Part shown: positions 3,714 through 17,990 of the stretch, one piece after another
Numbering within the stretch: position 1 is the stretch's first letter
Layout of the letters: each line of letters opens with the position of its first letter
Virus record (IMG/VR): IMGVR_UViG_2547132272_000012
Length of the DNA stretch: 18,204 nucleotides
DNA from: a virus
Lineage: Duplodnaviria > Heunggongvirae > Uroviricota > Caudoviricetes
Reading direction: 5' to 3' (one strand)
Position numbers and translations under genes: made by a program
Notes under the pieces: model-generated
Databases searched by the model: none
What the model saw: only the letters and a program-made list of their open reading frames with translations
What the model was told of the DNA's origin: nothing

Positions 3714-4167
3714 AATGTTTCAGCTCCAGACTCCACTTTTTGTTACGGTGCCCACCGCCAGGCAAAAAACGGTCGGTGGAATCAGAAAAACGCTCCACCA
3801 CCCACCATCCCAGCACATCACCTTCTCCGCTGACCAGCAGTTGCGGCTCAGCCTTATTCGCTAGGTCATACAGCGTGTTCACCGCCTCCGTCCCCGACTT
3901 CCCCAAAAAGGCGTGCGATTCCCCTTCAAGGCGAACGGTTCGCCCGTTCTTCCCGGTGTACTGCAGCAGACTCTGCTGACCGATGCGCGCCTGCTCGCTC
4001 CAGGTCCACCCCGCCTCACGGGTCAGCTGGTTATATGCCGTGGTATCCACGGAAAAGGCGAAATCCCCCAGCATCAGCATGACTCTGGCATCTGCAGCAC
4101 CACGGAGATAACTGTTGTCACGCTGAAGGCTGTCTTCAGCGAGAGCAATAACCGAACCCACACTCAC
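3688..4167 (-). CDS. Tail protein U (P2 gpU-like)
   Basis: Contains MLMLGDFAFSVDT...W.W..Q.RIGQ, resembling the gpU N-terminal signature. Start re-assigned to GTG at 4167 (GGAGGA 8 nt upstream; GTGA overlap with tape-measure stop) instead of track start 4188; the internal ATG at 4080 is an alternative. Confidence 0.7.
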   Translation of the reverse strand: MSVGSVIALAEDSLQRDNSYLRGAADARVMLMLGDFAFSVDTTAYNQLTREAGWTWSEQARIGQQSLLQYTGKNGRTVRLEGESHAFLGKSGTEAVNTLYDLANKAEPQLLVSGEGDVLGWWVVERFSDSTDRFLPGGGHRNKKWSLELKHYADDLDNP

Positions 4168-5822
4168 CAGACACTTCCTCCATCCCACAACGCATTATTA
4201 CCACTGAAGGCCGGGTTGTTTTTCGTCATACCGGCAATGGCGTCCGCAATACCCTGTTCGCTCTGTCCGGGCTGCGCAACAATGTTGAAGTTATAATTCT
4301 TCACGCTGTTGTCATTCAGCTGTGCGCCGGACTGTCCGCCCTCAACAGGAATGGCCTGCACGGCAGCCTGCCATGCTCCCGCACTGGCAAAAGGATCATC
4401 CTGTTTTCCGGCAGATCCTGCCTGCGCTGCCGGCAACGAAAAATCGAACGTTTTTTCCGGCGTGAGGTAACTGTTCACCGATTCATGAAACGCATCCGTA
4501 TCCACAATGCCCATAAAGCCCTTCGCGGCGTTATATTTTTCACGGACATTCTTTTCAAAATCCGGATTATTTTTCAGTTGCTCATCAAGCCAGGCATCCT
4601 GCCCGCTGTTCCGGGCCACTGTCCGGGCAGCGGTCATGTCACCACGCCCGACATACTCCAGAATCTGCTTCTGATCGCCCTGTTCATCCGGTAATAACCA
4701 GGCGAGTTTTTTGGCTACTGCAAAAATAATTTTTCCGACAAAAATGACGCCTTCGCCGAACTTCAGGGCCGCCGGATACAGCGTGTCCCTCAGAAAAGAC
4801 ACAACCTTTTTAATGCCTCCGCCTTTAAACCACTCTGCCAGGTCACCCGCTGTCTCTTGTATGGCGGGGGCCAGCTCTGCGCCCAGTTGTCCGGAAATTT
4901 CTGCAACCGCAGAAGAAAAAACCTGCTGCAAATCAGAAACAGCCTTGTTTCCGGCGAGTGCGCCAGCCACACCCTCTTTTGTCACCAGGTTATATTTATC
5001 CTGCTCAGCCAGCAGTTCCTGAAAACTTTTTCCAGAACGTTTGATCAGCATCAGCAGTTTACTGGCTTCACCACCAAACAATGCATCCAGCGCAAACGAT
5101 GCCTTTGATTCATCCTTCAGTGACAGCGCCCTGTCGATAATTTTTTCGAACTGTTCCTTATCACTCAGTCCGGCAAGATCGCCTTCCTCAAATCCCAGCG
5201 TTTCAAAGGCGTCAGAAAGCGAACTCTGCTTGCCATTTTGTTTATATTCCCCGGCCTTATGCAGGTATTCCTCAAACAGATCCCCGATATTATCGCCGGT
5301 CATATCGTACTGTTTTGCCAGGGCGTCCCAGTTCATGTACGTGCGGGTATCCACGCCATACGCAGTCGCTTTACCCGCTGTTTCAGCCGTCTGCGCATTC
5401 ATGGCAGCCGGAGCAATCAGCGCACCAAGTGCCGTGGTCACGGCACCGCCCCCCATCGCCAGACCGGCATTCCAGGCAAATTTACCGGTTCCGGCAAGCA
5501 GGCTTTTTCCCTTCCCCATAAAACGTCCGAGCCGATCGCGACGCTCAAGGCTCCGGTTCAGTTTTTTCTGGGCCGCATCCGCTTTCTTAATTTCAGCCGT
5601 GAGCCGGGCGTATTCATCCTCCATCGACTTAAAACGTTTCCCTGCCAGCGCCGCCCGTTTCATTTCTGCCGCCAGCTCTGCCTGCTCTTTACGCAAACGC
5701 GCAGCCTGCTGCTCCACATCCTGCAGATTTTTTCGCAGATCCGTCGCCGAACGACGCCACGAACTGTCCAGTTTGCCCCCGAACGACACGGTGGCCTTAA
5801 GATTCTGGCTTACGCTTCCCAC
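4164..5822 (-). CDS. Tail tape measure protein
   Basis: 552-aa ORF with a coiled-coil-like N-terminus (QDVEQQAARLRKEQAELAAEMKRAALAGKRF...) and Ala/Gly-rich low-complexity centre; GTG start at 5822 with GGAGG 9 nt upstream; lies between chaperone and U. Confidence 0.75.
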   Translation of the reverse strand: MGSVSQNLKATVSFGGKLDSSWRRSATDLRKNLQDVEQQAARLRKEQAELAAEMKRAALAGKRFKSMEDEYARLTAEIKKADAAQKKLNRSLERRDRLGRFMGKGKSLLAGTGKFAWNAGLAMGGGAVTTALGALIAPAAMNAQTAETAGKATAYGVDTRTYMNWDALAKQYDMTGDNIGDLFEEYLHKAGEYKQNGKQSSLSDAFETLGFEEGDLAGLSDKEQFEKIIDRALSLKDESKASFALDALFGGEASKLLMLIKRSGKSFQELLAEQDKYNLVTKEGVAGALAGNKAVSDLQQVFSSAVAEISGQLGAELAPAIQETAGDLAEWFKGGGIKKVVSFLRDTLYPAALKFGEGVIFVGKIIFAVAKKLAWLLPDEQGDQKQILEYVGRGDMTAARTVARNSGQDAWLDEQLKNNPDFEKNVREKYNAAKGFMGIVDTDAFHESVNSYLTPEKTFDFSLPAAQAGSAGKQDDPFASAGAWQAAVQAIPVEGGQSGAQLNDNSVKNYNFNIVAQPGQSEQGIADAIAGMTKNNPAFSGNNALWDGGSVW

Positions 5823-5924: not shown

Positions 5925-6224
5925 TTAACCCTCTGAAGATTTCGGTTTCGGTCGCTTCCCGGGTGGCAGCATAAAAACATTAAAGGCATCCGTCAGCTGG
6001 GCATAATCCGCTGCGGTCAGCAGCCAGATATCCTGCTCACTCAGATTACAAAGCTGCGCAATCATACGCGCCTCTTTTTCCTCCTCTGTTCCCCGGTCTT
6101 TGGTGAAGGCAATGCGATCGCGCACCAGCGGTTCGCGCATGGTGATACGTTCCAGCACAGCACCGCCCCCCAGAGTGACCGGCGTGTACAGTGTGATGGT
6201 GCGGGTTTCACCCGGAATATTCAT
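5925..6224 (-). CDS. Tail assembly chaperone (P2 gpE-like); probable frameshift-extended E+E' form
   Basis: 99-aa ORF immediately after the tube gene and its terminator; AAGGAG 6 nt upstream of ATG 6224; followed by an atypical 102-nt gap before the tape-measure gene that is open in alternative frames. Confidence 0.7.
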   Translation of the reverse strand: MNIPGETRTITLYTPVTLGGGAVLERITMREPLVRDRIAFTKDRGTEEEKEARMIAQLCNLSEQDIWLLTAADYAQLTDAFNVFMLPPGKRPKPKSSEG

Positions 6225-8278: not shown

Positions 8279-8899
8279 TCACATTTTCTGATTCGGTACT
8301 TTCGTGGTTCCCCCACTGTCTCCGGGATGGTCGTGTCCATTAAACGTTTCCCGGATCCGGCTCATGCTGCCGGATTTATCCGTCACCTCGCCTTTTGCAT
8401 AAAAATCACTTTTCACCACCACTTCACCTTCAACCATCGTGCGTCCGTTCACGATCAGGTCTTCTGAGATCATGACGTTTCCGTCCAGCACACCATTCCC
8501 GGTAATGGCATAGGTGCCCCCTTCCGCCAGAATAATGGTCAGTGAGTGCGTCTCCCGGTTATAGCAAATTTCCGTGCCATCTCCGTAACGGGTGATGTGC
8601 TCACTGTCGCTGCCCTGCGGAGCCGGTGCCTCACCGGTATTCCAGCCGGGAAAAACACGACCGTTATTCAGCTCCCCGGCCTCTGACAGTACCGTGACCG
8701 CATCGCCCACAGCAAACGGCTCAAAATCTGCCCGGTTTTTCCCGGCAAAACCCTGACACAATGGCAGCCAGGTGGTCACAATATCCCCCAGATCCACGCG
8801 GCATTCCGGAAAACCACCGTCCAGCCGCACCGAGTGGATCACCCCACGCCGGACCATATTTGCCAGGCGACGCTGTAAATCCCCCAGAACCTCATTCAC
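8279..8899 (-). CDS. Baseplate spike/assembly protein V (P2 gpV / Mu gp45-like)
   Basis: C-terminal motif GHDHPGDSGGTT is the gpV spike signature. Start re-assigned to GTG 8899 (GAGGGA 7 nt upstream; N-terminus then MNEVLGDLQRRLANMVRRG...). Confidence 0.8.
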   Translation of the reverse strand: MNEVLGDLQRRLANMVRRGVIHSVRLDGGFPECRVDLGDIVTTWLPLCQGFAGKNRADFEPFAVGDAVTVLSEAGELNNGRVFPGWNTGEAPAPQGSDSEHITRYGDGTEICYNRETHSLTIILAEGGTYAITGNGVLDGNVMISEDLIVNGRTMVEGEVVVKSDFYAKGEVTDKSGSMSRIRETFNGHDHPGDSGGTTKVPNQKM

Positions 8900-9461
8900 G
8901 TGGCTTTCCCTCAAAAATCAGCCGATAATCATCCACATGCTGTCGCCCGATCTCCGGTGCCACGCCCAGCCAGGCCCGCTGTAACGGCAGGTTATCCGTG
9001 GCAAAGGGATCCATACCAAACGTCACCGTCTGGTTAAATGAAATCTGCCAGACCAGATAATCATCCAGACGCGGATCGGTTTCATCTGCGTCCGCTGATA
9101 TAAAAATGGCAGGCTCCACATTTGCCAGTCCGAACGTCTGCCCGTCGAGCCAGTGCGACAACGCGGCGGCCGCCGAACGGATAAAAATATCCGGCTTTAT
9201 CGCCCTGCGTTCTTCTTTTTTTTCTTTATCCGACTCACCGGCACGGTCAACCAGTACCCACAGCGCGGCAGACAACACCACCGTCATCTGCCCGTCTGCA
9301 TTGCTTTTCGCATCCCAGCCATCCACCGCCAGAAACACCGCCGGAGTGACCAGTTGCGTGACCCGTTCCGGATAGGTGTCCGCATCATTGATCCATTTAA
9401 GTTTTTTCAGGGCATCCAGCACAGCAGCGTGCCAGGATGCCATGCATAAGGGTTCAGCCAT
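8892..9461 (-). CDS. Putative tail completion / tail terminator protein (function uncertain)
   Basis: Track ORF 8892..9557; preferred start is ATG 9461 (MAEPLCMASWHAAVLDALKK...) preceded by GAGGA. Position immediately upstream of V matches P2 R/S-type tail completion genes; no motif recognised. Confidence 0.4.
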   Translation of the reverse strand: MAEPLCMASWHAAVLDALKKLKWINDADTYPERVTQLVTPAVFLAVDGWDAKSNADGQMTVVLSAALWVLVDRAGESDKEKKEERRAIKPDIFIRSAAAALSHWLDGQTFGLANVEPAIFISADADETDPRLDDYLVWQISFNQTVTFGMDPFATDNLPLQRAWLGVAPEIGRQHVDDYRLIFEGKPRE

Positions 9462-9475
9462 TGCGTCCTCACATT

Positions 9476-10159
9476 TTATCGGGGGGCCACGGTAATGCCG
9501 TACTTCGCGCGTCGCCGGATGTCCGATTCGAACTCTTTCATAAAAATTTCCAGGCACTCCGCAAAAGCCACATCTTCAACATAATCCATCGTGCTGGCAT
9601 AAATACCAGCTTCAGCCTCCCGGACACGCCCGGTTTCAGGATTTTTGATGATGATTGTTCGTCGGTTCTCTTTGCGACTACGTATCACCAGCCCGTTTTC
9701 ATACGCGGCAGGAGATAAAAACGAACCGTTGGGTTCAAAAACGGGATCGCTGGCTTTGCGGCGACGTCGCCGGACACGGTTCTCTTTGATAAACCGCCCG
9801 GTTACCGGATCACGGAGATCATGACGCCGGACACGTTGCCCACGAATGCGTCCGCGCAAATCTTTTATCTTGATCGCATTAAGGCCAAACCAGAGACGGG
9901 CTTCATCCATAGCATTACCCCGGGTAATGCGGGTGGAAAAAAGCCGCCTGTCCAGTGTGTCCATTTTGCGGGGAGCCAGGCCGGTTTTCAGTTCCGCAAG
10001 CGCCTTCATGCGCATTTTTGATGCCGTTCGCTTCAGTGCGCGGGAATAGGCCAGACGGAACTGGTGCTGCGTTGCACCAGCCTGCGCCGCAATATCCCGC
10101 AATTCTTCGACGTCGATATCAAACAACAGATTTCGCCGGATGCGTGATGCCCGCGCCAT
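9476..10159 (-). CDS. Hypothetical basic (Arg-rich) protein at head-tail junction
   Basis: 227-aa ORF with AAGGAG 7 nt upstream of ATG 10159; very Arg/Lys-rich (RVRRRRRK, RGRIRGQRVRRHDLRD). No family recognised; maybe a virion morphogenesis or neck protein. Confidence 0.5.
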   Translation of the reverse strand: MARASRIRRNLLFDIDVEELRDIAAQAGATQHQFRLAYSRALKRTASKMRMKALAELKTGLAPRKMDTLDRRLFSTRITRGNAMDEARLWFGLNAIKIKDLRGRIRGQRVRRHDLRDPVTGRFIKENRVRRRRRKASDPVFEPNGSFLSPAAYENGLVIRSRKENRRTIIIKNPETGRVREAEAGIYASTMDYVEDVAFAECLEIFMKEFESDIRRRAKYGITVAPR

Positions 10160-10180
10160 TGCGATATCTCCTTATGAAGT

Positions 10181-10537
10181 TTATTTTTTACTCCATTCGA
10201 TGGTCGGTAATGACGTCCCCCGTCCACGCCCGAGCGTTACGCGTGTACGCCCCATTTCATCCGCACCAATATGCGTGACGCGGTAAAATTCGTGGTTCAG
10301 CTCCACTGTGCAGTTTGTGCTGAGCCCCTTAATATCCTCTGTCAGTGCGCTGAATGCCGGAGCCTGATCGTTAATTTCTCCACCACCCGGAACACGAACC
10401 GGCGCATCCGGAGATTCAAAAATCACCATAACAGGGCGACGCTCGCTGCCAATAGACAGTATCGCCGGACACTCCTCGGAAAAAAGCCGGGAAATGCGGG
10501 CATCTGCCCGCATCAGCCGTTTATGAAATCGATGCAT
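10181..10537 (-). CDS. Putative head-tail joining / head completion protein
   Basis: Track ORF 10181..10558 begins with TTG; I prefer ATG 10537 (ATGA overlap with upstream stop), giving about 118 aa. Size and position are consistent with a lambda FII-like connector; assignment is positional only. Confidence 0.4.
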   Translation of the reverse strand: MHRFHKRLMRADARISRLFSEECPAILSIGSERRPVMVIFESPDAPVRVPGGGEINDQAPAFSALTEDIKGLSTNCTVELNHEFYRVTHIGADEMGRTRVTLGRGRGTSLPTIEWSKK

Positions 10538-10866
10538 CAGTACCCCAGACGCACACAAACACAGGCATCTCCGGCTTCAGCCGATGCCCATACTGTTCCC
10601 ACCAGCGTATTACCTGATTTCGTTGCGGTCAGTGTTGCCGTATCCGCTTTGAAATACACCAGCTTGCCTTGCGTTAGCGCCTCTGCCTCTTTAGGTAAAG
10701 AGAAAACCCCCACCGTATGCAGAATGCCCACATCCCCGTCCGGAATATCAGCGTGAGCAACACCAACAAGATTATCCTGAACAACCAGATCGCCAGATGA
10801 CACCGCCTTCCCGGTCCCGTTCACCCAGTCGACGTTTTTTCCGTCCTGAACAAAATTTTTTGACAT
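10537..10866 (-). CDS. Putative head decoration protein (lambda gpD-like)
   Basis: Preferred start ATG 10866 (MSKNFVQDG...; GGAGA 6 nt upstream) rather than 10911, which abuts the terminator T-run. About 109 aa (lambda gpD is about 110 aa) with DGDVGILHTVGV resembling the DGAAVGILAV region of lambda gpD. Confidence 0.45.
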   Translation of the reverse strand: MSKNFVQDGKNVDWVNGTGKAVSSGDLVVQDNLVGVAHADIPDGDVGILHTVGVFSLPKEAEALTQGKLVYFKADTATLTATKSGNTLVGTVWASAEAGDACVCVRLGY

Positions 10867-10939: not shown

Positions 10940-13030
10940 TTATTGTTTTTTCACTTTGACCATGCCACGCCAGTCAAGCGGTGCCACTCCGGCATCAATG
11001 CGCACCTTGAATGCTGCACCATCAACCGTAAAGCCCTGTTGCTGCTCCAGATACGGCGTATCAATACCGTCGAGGTAAGCCACTTCAATCGTGTCACGCC
11101 CCTGCGCTGCCACCAGGTAATAATCCGTCGGGCTGCTGTCATCAAGGCGGGCCTCTGACAGAACCGTGGCAAAATTCTGAATCGGGTTAATAATGCCGCT
11201 GTTCGCATCTGCACCGGGCACGCTGGCAGACTTAATCAACTGATTGGCACGCGACTCAATGGCAACAGGCGTCAACATAAAAGCAGGACGAATGTTCAGG
11301 CGGCGGTCACCCGATTTCTGGAGCAGCATGGCTTTACGCCCGGAATCCAGCCCCTCAATAGACAAATCTGCAGTCACCAGGTTGCCATGATCTGCATGGA
11401 ACAGCGGTTTGCCATCCGACATTTTCGGATTGCTGGTCAGCACGGCCCAGACCAGATCACCCACGGTAGTCCGCGCTGCCGCCCCCATTGCCATCGGAAT
11501 ACGGGTCAGCATATCCAGGTCATCATTGATGATGGTCTGGCGATCAATGCTGAACAATTCGCCATAAGTCGCCAGTGCAATCGGTTCGCCACGATCTTTC
11601 AGGGTCACATATTTATATTCAGCCCCCGGCAATACTTTTCGTAGCGTCGGGAAAGTTTCCAGCCCGACACGATGCGCGGTTTTAAAATCAGTCAGCGTTC
11701 CCTTGCGGGTCCATTTGTCAAAATTTTCGCTGGCATCATCCCAGCCCTGCAACGCAGCTTTATGAGCCACATCCATCAGGATATTGCCGAAATCGCTGCT
11801 GCTGTGAGTAAATGCCAGCCCCACCATCGCCATCGGTGCGGAATGACCGGAGATACCGATACCGCGATCAACCAGCGAAGCACGCGCCAGCTCGCGCAGT
11901 GTAAAACCGTTATAAGCATTATCTTTTTCTGCTTCGGCATATCCGGCGCGTGCCATCACAGCCGCACGAATGGAATCGCCGACCAGATTACCGTTCCCGG
12001 CATGAATATGAACAGCGCCCGGGCCTGCACTTGGTGTCGTTCCGGCTGCCAGCGCCTGCAACAGTTTTTCACGGGCCTGTGCTTCCGTACAGGTCATGTC
12101 GTTCAGACACTCCGCTTTCAGTGCGGCATAAGACGGGAAAGAGGCAAAAACTGCGGTTACAGCCTGCACACGTTCCGCATTGGCTGCCATCAGTTGTTGC
12201 TGAACCTGCGAAGCAATTGCGCTGATATCCACATTTCCGGTTGATGGTGCCTGCTGAGCAGCGATCTGTTGCGCATTTTGCGGGGTTGCTTTCGGCTCCT
12301 GCGGCTGTCCGTTTGTCGTTTCTGCACGTGGAGCAAAAAGCGCGTTAATCTGTTCTGGCATATTATGGTAATCCTTCAGTTTATTTTGGTTCACACAGGC
12401 CGCAGCCTGTAATTCAGGTTCAAGCGTATCAGCGAAGCCTTTTTCCACGGCTTCAGCACCGTTCAGCCAGGTTTCTGCTTTCAGCATGGCTTCCAGCTCC
12501 TCCTGCCCGAGTCCGGTTTTATTCATGTAGGCTGACAGCATCAGCGCCTCGTTGCGATCCAGCCAGTCAGCATAATCACGCATATCATCGGAATCACCGG
12601 CGATCCCGCCCCACGGCTTGTGCACCATCAGCCAGGAATTTTCAGGCATATGCACTGTGGCGCCTGGCAGGCAGACAATCATGGAGGCCATGCTGGCTGC
12701 AACACCATCCACCCAGATATCCACCTTCGCTTTCAGCCGTGACAGCGTGTTAAAGATGGCAAACCCCTGCATCACATCACCGCCCGGGCTGTGGATATGC
12801 AGATCAATAGCGCTGGCCTCAAACACCCCCGCATCCTTACAGTCAGCAATAAACTGCTGCGCGGTGATGCCCCATCCGCCAATCACGTCATAGAGGTAAA
12901 TTTCCACCCGCCCGGCAGTCTGTGCACGGATTTCATACCAGCACTGACCATTAGCGGCATCCACCCCCGCAAGGCTGGCGCGGGGATTAATCATCGTCCC
13001 GCGAAGACGCGGGTTTATCATTTGCTGCAT
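10940..13030 (-). CDS. Fused prohead protease (ClpP/S49-like) - scaffold - major capsid polyprotein
   Basis: 696-aa ORF. N-terminus (HIHSPGGDVMQGFAIFNTL...DIWVDGVAASMASMIVCLPG...HMPENSWLMVHKPWGG) looks like a ClpP/S49 serine protease fold; the middle is Ala/Gln-rich; the C-terminal ~300 aa is capsid-like. ATG 13030 has AAGGAG 9 nt upstream and overlaps the portal 3' end by 44 nt. Confidence 0.8.
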   Translation of the reverse strand: MQQMINPRLRGTMINPRASLAGVDAANGQCWYEIRAQTAGRVEIYLYDVIGGWGITAQQFIADCKDAGVFEASAIDLHIHSPGGDVMQGFAIFNTLSRLKAKVDIWVDGVAASMASMIVCLPGATVHMPENSWLMVHKPWGGIAGDSDDMRDYADWLDRNEALMLSAYMNKTGLGQEELEAMLKAETWLNGAEAVEKGFADTLEPELQAAACVNQNKLKDYHNMPEQINALFAPRAETTNGQPQEPKATPQNAQQIAAQQAPSTGNVDISAIASQVQQQLMAANAERVQAVTAVFASFPSYAALKAECLNDMTCTEAQAREKLLQALAAGTTPSAGPGAVHIHAGNGNLVGDSIRAAVMARAGYAEAEKDNAYNGFTLRELARASLVDRGIGISGHSAPMAMVGLAFTHSSSDFGNILMDVAHKAALQGWDDASENFDKWTRKGTLTDFKTAHRVGLETFPTLRKVLPGAEYKYVTLKDRGEPIALATYGELFSIDRQTIINDDLDMLTRIPMAMGAAARTTVGDLVWAVLTSNPKMSDGKPLFHADHGNLVTADLSIEGLDSGRKAMLLQKSGDRRLNIRPAFMLTPVAIESRANQLIKSASVPGADANSGIINPIQNFATVLSEARLDDSSPTDYYLVAAQGRDTIEVAYLDGIDTPYLEQQQGFTVDGAAFKVRIDAGVAPLDWRGMVKVKKQ

Positions 13031-14506: not shown

Positions 14507-14731
14507 TCAGGAGAAACGGGCGAGTTTGTACGGTTTCCTTGTGGGCTGGCAGGCCGCCGCCCAGCGTTTTTCCCAGTATTCAAGCTCCCTGCGTAATGCA
14601 ACAGGATCATGGTTGGTGATCGCCCTGCCATTCACCCCGGTAAAAGACACACTTTTACCATCCAGGGAATCCCTGTATGCCTGTCGCACGATAACCAGCA
14701 TCTGGAAAATCTCATCTTTTTTCACAACCAT
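14507..14731 (-). CDS. Head-tail joining protein (lambda gpW-like)
   Basis: 74-aa ORF between terL and portal, exactly where lambda W sits; central DGKSVSFTGVNGRAIT resembles the lambda W core. Start ambiguous: ATG 14731 overlaps terL by 10 nt with zero-spacer GGAGG; ATG 14701 is the alternative. Confidence 0.5.
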   Translation of the reverse strand: MVVKKDEIFQMLVIVRQAYRDSLDGKSVSFTGVNGRAITNHDPVALRRELEYWEKRWAAACQPTRKPYKLARFS

Positions 14732-17591: not shown

Positions 17592-17990
17592 TTACTCACG
17601 AATCAGGCGAGCACTCTTACCATTCATTTCAATACGCGAATACTGCGGTTTACCATCAATGATGTCTGTCATCACGAACATCTCACCCGGCTGCAGTTCA
17701 ACTACTGCGCCTTCCGGCAATTCCATGCAGGCAAATACCGGACAGCCCGGATAACGACCATCTTCTGTTGCTTCCAGCATTGACTCACCAAACCACTCCG
17801 TCATGGCGCGACCATCAGCTGCTTTGTAGTGGATCAAGTACTGGTTTTCACTACCTGCATACTGAGCACGCCCCCTCACTTCCCCCCATTCATCACTGAT
17901 ACGTACCTCCACCAGTTGTGACAACTCAAACTTAAACGGAACAGCAGCGGTACCAATTACAATCGGTTTGCTTTCTGTTTTTTTCATCAT
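17592..17990 (-). CDS. Hypothetical protein (unknown function) upstream of terminase
   Basis: 132-aa ORF MMKKTESKPIVIGTAAVPFKFELSQLVEVRISDEWGEVRGRAQYAGSENQYLIHYKAADGRAMTEWFGESML...; AGGAG 3-6 nt before tandem ATGs; no transmembrane segment or signal peptide evident; no family confidently recognised. Confidence 0.55.
   Translation of the reverse strand: MMKKTESKPIVIGTAAVPFKFELSQLVEVRISDEWGEVRGRAQYAGSENQYLIHYKAADGRAMTEWFGESMLEATEDGRYPGCPVFACMELPEGAVVELQPGEMFVMTDIIDGKPQYSRIEMNGKSARLIRE

Follow-up and report, generated by a model that had tools for sequence, protein, structure and literature searches.

Gene Organization of the Locus

We analyzed a window of 18,204 nucleotides, that is, the whole stretch of DNA to which all positions below refer. 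It is a phage structural module with every gene on the minus strand. The order starts with a DUF1441 small terminase, a gpA-type large terminase, a 74-aa gpW-like adaptor and a lambda-family portal. These are followed by a ClpP-protease/major-capsid fusion, a cement/decoration protein, an FII-like head closure protein, the target gene of this study, a 189-aa protein and a gpV-type spike. Sheath, tube, tail assembly chaperone and tape measure protein come next, and the last genes encode gpU-, X-, D-, W/gp25-, J- and I-like baseplate proteins. The head and packaging genes are of lambda type (gpA terminase, lambda-family portal) and the tail genes are of the P2-type contractile kind, so the junction of a lambda-type head with a myovirus tail, noticed in an earlier reading made without database searches (the sequence-only reading), is real. 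Prophages 96–99% identical to the region were found in 13 of 5426 complete E. coli genomes, in which RefSeq annotates the counterpart of the target as 'hypothetical protein'. The locus is an E. coli prophage that joins a lambda-type head to a contractile tail.

The neck genes and related features are as follows.

14507..14731, minus strand: gpW-like head-tail adaptor, 74 aa, a member of the neck set (phrog_118 'head-tail adaptor', E = 4.9e-18)
10181..10558, minus strand: lambda FII-type head closure / head-tail joining protein (Hc1), upstream neighbour of the target (PF05354 Phage_attach, E = 2.2e-6)
10168..10173, minus strand: Shine-Dalgarno sequence AAGGAG, 8 nt 5' of the target ATG, read directly from the sequence
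9476..10159, minus strand: target, predicted tail completion protein (TCP / Ne1) gene of the lambda gpZ superfamily, 227 aa
8892..9461, minus strand: predicted tail terminator / collar capping tube and sheath, downstream neighbour of the target, 189 aa from the ATG at 9461
8279-8914, minus strand: gpV-type spike (PF04717 and Apex motif), directly after the collar gene and ahead of the sheath gene
4164..5822, minus strand: tape measure protein, 552 aa, assigned by position and size, putative TCP partner within the tube

The upstream neighbour also matched phrog_82 'head closure Hc1' (E = 1.5e-24), the PHROG that contains lambda FII, and its RefSeq name is 'head-tail joining protein'. For the downstream neighbour, RefSeq agrees with the start and calls the product 'hypothetical'; the gene falls in phrog_1072 (function unknown). 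The profile of its homologues (A4) matched the R-pyocin 'Collar PA0615' (PDB 6u5f_A, E = 5.6e-10), and there were weak matches to Mu gp37 (PF08873, E = 0.036) and, with hhalign, to Mu gp37/gpK (E = 0.006). Because of the PA0615 match and the weak Mu gp37/gpK match, the 189-aa gene is read as the terminator/collar, and on these profiles it represents a so far unannotated tail terminator/collar family. The target itself showed no homology match to tail terminator/collar proteins (lambda gpU / Mu gpK / pyocin PA0615), and we ruled it out as the tail terminator because the downstream gene bears that signature. The target therefore does lie between a head-completion and a tail-completion gene, as the sequence-only reading had placed it. 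The tape measure gene is flanked by the genes of the tail assembly chaperone (PF10109) and the gpU-like protein (PF06995); its product had no Pfam match and is 'hypothetical' in RefSeq.

Some other properties of the module were recorded. The gpV spike is split from the other baseplate genes (gp25/J/I, 512-2311) by the sheath, tube, chaperone and tape measure genes. The chaperone gene (5925-6224, minus strand) is followed by a 102-nt gap to the tape measure start; the −1 frame is open across this gap, as expected of a P2 E/E'-type frameshift product, and in a simple scan no canonical slippery heptamer was detected close to where the chaperone gene ends. The portal and ClpP-protease/capsid fusion ORFs overlap by 44 nt as listed (12987-13030). 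A 132-aa ORF 5' of the small terminase (17592-17990, minus strand) had no Pfam match.

Start Signals and Conservation of the Target Gene

The target ORF runs on the minus strand from ATG to TAA at 9476-10159 and encodes 227 aa; the strand is absent from the sequence-only reading. The rest of that description agrees with our results, in that the gene is well supported by its AAGGAG ribosome binding site and by tight packing: 21 nt separate it from the stop of the upstream gene and 14 nt from the start of the downstream gene, which has its own GAGGA ahead of the start. Homologues with 30–98% identity were found in Escherichia, Salmonella, Klebsiella, Erwinia, Citrobacter, Providencia, Serratia, Cedecea and Vibrio, and therefore the target is a real conserved gene.

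The protein contains 17.2% Arg, with a net charge of +23 and a pI of 11.1, which is the highest basicity among the 19 module genes. Both highly basic tracts described earlier were located, RGRIRGQRVRRHDLRD at residues 102-117 and RVRRRRRKASD at residues 128-138.

Assignment to the Lambda gpZ Superfamily

Lambda gpZ corresponds to Pfam PF06763, to PHROG 27, to the 'tail completion protein' and to the Ne1 of Lopes et al. 2014. Single-sequence scans of the target against Pfam (E ≤ 0.1) and NCBIfam returned no matches. Against PHROGs, the target matched phrog_27 'tail completion or Neck1 protein' with E = 3.4e-24, and the match covered residues 5-226 of the protein and positions 3-198 of the 199 in the profile. 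Lambda gpZ (from NC_001416) matched the same profile with E = 3.2e-69. Hence the earlier description of an orphan with no recognisable family applies to the single-sequence Pfam and NCBIfam scans and to the RefSeq annotation, and it does not hold against the phrog_27 match.

The relation to the curated Pfam family was then visible in the relatives of the target. Proteins P0046–P0050 are 30–32% identical to it across 93–94% of the query (P0046, E = 4e-20), and PF06763 (Minor_tail_Z) was matched by P0046 with 40.0 bits (E = 4.7e-10, positions 6-186 of 190), by P0050 with 38.3 bits and by P0043 with 23.5 bits. The gathering threshold of PF06763 is 23.9 bits and the target falls below it, so it does not belong to the family as curated. 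Judged by these profiles, the target is placed outside the PF06763 boundary and inside the wider gpZ superfamily, because it has no Pfam match of its own while its relatives match PF06763. An exhaustive HMMER search of 1.84 billion representatives with the clade profile gave 255 proteins at E ≤ 1e-3. Among the 116 full-length representatives, 43 matched PF06763 individually (E ≤ 1e-3), and no second family recurred.

Direct comparison did not reveal the link to gpZ. BLASTP of the target against lambda gpZ gave no match, and hhalign of the shallow 22-sequence clade profile (A2) against lambda gpZ was not significant (probability 0.14%). The link is carried by PF06763-positive intermediates: with the 116-sequence profile (A5), hhalign aligned the single lambda gpZ sequence over 134 columns with a probability of 95.9% and E = 6.4e-9. 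The profile search suggested in the sequence-only reading thus gave phrog_27 and gpZ, and it gave nothing for Mu gpG (A3, hhalign probability 0.2%, not significant). PF04883 (HK97 gp10-like) was matched neither by the target nor by any of the 116 representatives. The target very probably belongs to the gpZ/TCP family.

The representative search also returned two WD40/STAND proteins, P0186 (1582 aa) and P0207 (764 aa), with WD40/STAND and CHAT-WD40 domains. They matched profile positions 115-164 in repeats, and we dismissed them as false positives whose score is summed over 8–12 repeats. The TCP segment 'RDPxTGRF...FxPxGSxL', part of the wider profile segment HxxRDPxTGRF...FxPxGSxL, resembles the WD40 blade 'SDPRTGR...VSFSPDGSLL'.

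Predicted Structure

An AlphaFold2 model of the target was obtained from a 26-sequence alignment (mean pLDDT 77.6). It consists of a short helix, a long helix (31-61), a beta domain (73-185) and a long C-terminal helix (187-220), with a disordered N-terminus and a disordered segment at residues 127-134. The predicted fold agrees with that of TCPs, in which long N-terminal and C-terminal helices surround a loop/beta element as in gp51 of Staphylococcus phage 80alpha, and the model and gp51 share the two-long-helix scaffold.

For the structure-based search that the sequence-only reading had called for, Foldseek was used, and no match to the model was found in the PDB. The hits in BFVD were two 188-aa viral proteins without a name (probability 1.0, TM 0.5–0.6) and weak ones to entries named HK97-gp10 (E = 0.17 to 1.6). 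Sequence-profile searches of the PDB with A2 and A5 gave only noise, and no PDB relative was found for lambda gpZ.

Basicity of the Family and the Arg-Rich Loop

The Arg-rich tracts lie in one variable segment of the protein.

9740..9850, minus strand: central variable basic loop, residues 104-140, with the HxxRDPxTGRF subclade motif and the poly-Arg tract (segment statistics, alignment A5)

Strong basicity is a trait of the whole family. The 116 representatives have a median pI of 10.4 (99% above 9.5) and a median net charge of +17, and lambda gpZ reaches pI 12.0 and a net charge of +37. The loop follows the conserved GLN...LxGR strand and precedes the FxPxG strand. In the 116 representatives it is 8–37 residues long, with a median of 10; the target has the longest, with 37 aa, and its loop charge of +11 is nearly the top. 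About 25 (25–27) residues of the target loop correspond to insert states of the family profile and bear the subclade motif HxxRDPxTGR[FY]. MAFFT places the poly-Arg run opposite RRRRRKKGQR of gpZ. The poly-Arg tract differs in length by indels among close homologues, and its residues 127-134 have pLDDT <50. The Arg-rich tracts are an exaggerated version of the basic loop in lambda gpZ, located within a variable, largely disordered loop of the beta domain.

A connection of the long-loop subclade with contractile tails was ruled out, since the genes of short-loop TCPs (phage ECO1230-10 and the Vibrio-type metagenomic contig L006) likewise have gpV, baseplate genes and P2-type tail genes as neighbours. 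Neither in lambda gpZ nor in the short-loop relatives is there a counterpart that reaches the 37 residues of the basic loop. The long loop might be a functional adaptation of one subclade, for example an arm that reaches through the FII/portal channel and grips the single-stranded cos end, or one that is engaged during sheath contraction, but we regard this as rather doubtful. If it were true, the clade would offer a tractable way to locate, in a contractile-tailed phage, a TCP of the gpZ type, of which none has so far been seen in a virion.

A perfect 14-bp palindrome, CGGCGACGTCGCCG, occurs at 9759-9772 inside the poly-Arg codons with an AatII site at its centre (0 expected, 200 shuffles). 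The palindrome is probably a side effect of the CGN codons.

Conserved Gene Order of the Neck

The canonical order of Type 1 necks is Ad1-Hc1-Ne1-Tc1 (PMC4362835). The target occupies the TCP/Ne1 position in this order, between Hc1 and the terminator (Tc1) and ahead of the tube gene. The local order Hc1 - TCP - terminator is thus the FII-Z-U order of lambda, and it was found in the loci L001, L003, L004, L006 and L008. With a collar of about 180 aa followed by gpV, the same order is present in Citrobacter phage Chris1, in the Jilinvirus ECO1230-10, whose RefSeq name for the TCP is 'tail completion or Neck1 protein', and in L006, whose TCP is PF06763-positive. In L008, a TCP 38% identical to the target is preceded by the lambda head order gpA-gpW-portal-S49 protease-gpD-gpE-FI-FII, and the counterpart of the gpW-like adaptor matches PF02831 gpW. 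Because the same slot order in related loci is accompanied by sequence homology, the target is a homologue of lambda Z by position as well as by sequence; it is an ordinary, very divergent relative of lambda gpZ. A match to a standard tail completion family, with gene order conserved in known phages, is the outcome that the sequence-only reading had named as evidence against its own proposal.

The L008 locus is a 26.4-kb Logan contig (ERR13998665) with a full lambda-type head module, a long-form TCP, a collar, gpV and contractile-tail genes. The adjacency of collar and gpV was kept in all related loci examined (L003, L004, L006, L008), and the rest of the tail module was arranged differently.

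Comparison with Known Tail Completion Proteins

The target shares with lambda gpZ the membership in phrog_27, the slot right after FII, the extreme basicity and an Arg/Lys run in the central loop, and its module shares with lambda the cos-type gpA terminase and the lambda-family portal. However, the two proteins have no pairwise similarity, gpZ has 192 aa and the target 227 aa, and gpZ lacks the subclade insertion of 25–27 aa with the HxxRDPxTGRF motif. In lambda the next gene is gpU, whereas the target is followed by a pyocin-collar/Mu gpK-type terminator that would cap tube and sheath, and the tail is contractile.

Closer in tail type are ECO1230-10 (gp23) and the homologues of ep3, Arya, PPpW-3, Mica and phiRSP, annotated as 'tail completion or Neck1 protein' or 'minor tail protein Z'. 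In tblastn, this group showed 26–30% identity to the target over >90% of the query. These phages are myoviruses with the same order of Hc1, TCP, a conserved protein of about 189 aa and baseplate V. However, their TCPs are shorter (about 175–185 aa) and lack the long basic loop, and the remaining tail module is arranged otherwise.

The sole TCP with a solved structure is gp51 of 80alpha / SaPI1 (PDB 9mu2 chain P; HK97 gp10 family). It is 8% identical to the target, has about half its size and lacks its beta domain; 80alpha is, unlike the prophage studied here, a headful-packaging siphovirus of a Gram-positive host. SPP1 gp16.1, P2 gpS and Mu gpG are experimentally studied TCPs whose relationship to the target was undetectable in our comparisons (for Mu gpG, by hhalign). 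They have been put in the same Ne1/TCP superfamily (PMC4362835, PMC11099176). Their mutants give non-infectious particles or defects in head-tail joining. In P2 and Mu, the TCP gene has left the Hc1-TCP-terminator context (PMC11099176), whereas the present prophage retains it.

Proposed Role of the Target Protein

Studies of other phages have indicated what a TCP does. [quoted passage not shown] SPP1 gp16.1 aids head-tail joining and is required for guiding DNA into the cell at ejection (PMC11099176). The neck lumen of 80alpha/SaPI1 holds a single TCP monomer, which forms a beta-sheet and a helical bundle with the three termini of the tape measure protein; it caps the DNA end and turns a positive face to the DNA (PMC11661146). 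A lumenal location in contact with both tape measure protein and DNA end is known for this system alone (PMC11661146). The neck channel of myophage 812 has been described without a TCP (PMC12886913).

Beyond the homology, fold class, synteny and family-wide basicity established here, we infer the molecular role by analogy. Given the lambda, SPP1 and 80alpha data, we propose the same role for the target at the top of a contractile tail. The TCP would join the finished tail at its head-proximal end, once the downstream collar/terminator has capped tube and sheath. Probably in one or few copies, it would sit in the lumen at the tail-neck junction, where its two long helices and beta element may pack onto the tape measure trimer at the end that faces the head; the partnership with the tape measure protein is suggested by 80alpha (PMC11661146). 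After the FII-capped head has joined, the positively charged face of the TCP would meet the packaged cos-cut DNA end. Since the TCP would thus lie between tape measure protein and DNA, it would have to exit the tail before the DNA. Without it, particles would be expected to look normal and to infect poorly, because the DNA end would be misplaced, or misrouted at ejection.

We estimate the probability that the target is the tail completion protein (TCP / Ne1) of this phage, a highly divergent member of the gpZ superfamily, at about 0.8. The specific picture of a coupler in the lumen that links the tape measure protein to the DNA end, drawn from the analogy with 80alpha, is somewhat more likely than not.

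Alternative Explanations

The target may be a TCP by descent and yet work otherwise than 80alpha gp51, as an assembly factor that is not retained, as a protein bound elsewhere or as a symmetric ring. It is twice as large as gp51 and has in addition a beta domain and a long loop, and the phenotypes of TCP mutants vary between phages (PMC11099176). In addition, high-resolution maps of lambda have never shown gpZ (PMC12617516), and T5 p143 has been fitted as a monomer at the tail tip (PMC11784142). However, the T5 authors doubt that p143 belongs to the family, since its predicted fold is unlike that of other TCPs (PMC11784142), the model of the target keeps the two-long-helix scaffold of gp51, and its strong basicity would suit the acidic lumen and the DNA contact reported for 80alpha (PMC11661146). 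We therefore consider a different mode of action unlikely, though it is the most serious competitor. It is very improbable that the target binds DNA as an ejected or internal protein with no relation to tail completion, for instance as a pilot or anti-defence protein that is packaged along with the genome: the pI of 11.1, the poly-Arg tracts and the disordered basic loop would fit it, but basicity is common to the whole gpZ family, homology and synteny point to the TCP slot, and no defence or anti-defence family was among the Pfam, PHROGs and NCBIfam matches of the target. The earlier idea of a nucleic-acid-binding or injected protein survives in a narrower form, as it would fit known TCPs, of which 80alpha gp51 caps the DNA end (PMC11661146) and SPP1 gp16.1 routes the DNA (PMC11099176).

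The sequence-only reading had put the target forward as a candidate adaptor for the docking of a lambdoid head to a contractile tail. A protein newly evolved to dock a lambda-type head onto a Mu/P2-type tail would be expected exactly where the target lies, at the border of lambda-like head and P2-like tail genes, and it could well lack annotation in RefSeq, Pfam and NCBIfam. But homologous lambda gpZ fills the same slot after FII in a siphovirus, and the gpZ family was found with both siphovirus and myovirus tail types; Type 1 necks in general are common to siphoviruses and myoviruses (PMC4362835). The proteins of the head-tail interface are present and ordinary (FII-like Hc1, PA0615-like terminator/collar), and therefore no special hybrid adaptor is needed. 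This proposal fails on these grounds, and we give it hardly any weight. Least probable of all is a non-functional target, either a chance ORF or part of a decaying prophage remnant. The prophage is rare among complete E. coli genomes, and truncated and fused variants are known (P0012, P0034), but conservation over the full length in many genera, down to 30% identity, a strong ribosome binding site, operon packing and an intact structural module around the target all speak against it.

Consequences for Annotation and Atypical Relatives

The gpZ-type family is already known, and what is new here is a divergent member of it, which will hold nothing surprising for a specialist. The practical value lies in corrected annotation: the target and roughly 250 representative relatives are 'hypothetical' in RefSeq/PGAP, Pfam and NCBIfam although they are gpZ-type tail completion proteins, and the adjacent 189-aa terminator/collar is to be corrected as well. 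The complete neck gene order of lambda (W ... FII-Z) has been carried unchanged onto a contractile tail, with the terminator alone swapped. This supports the view that siphoviruses and myoviruses can exchange Type 1 necks without a dedicated adaptor. To our knowledge, no conserved tail component is less well understood than the TCPs, and neither gpZ itself nor the TCP of any myovirus has yet been located. A contractile-tailed phage whose gpZ homologue is large and well predicted could therefore serve as a useful structural target.

Two relatives had unusual compositions. In P0034 (283 aa, from a 62-kb Logan contig), the TCP sequence from about residue 14 onwards is joined in frame to the N-terminal part of a DUF1441 small terminase. 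P0073 (194 aa) bears the name of a small terminase, yet it shares 100% identity with a portion of the 189-aa collar protein. Both chimeras have the look of prophage remnants without any remaining head genes, or of assembly errors.
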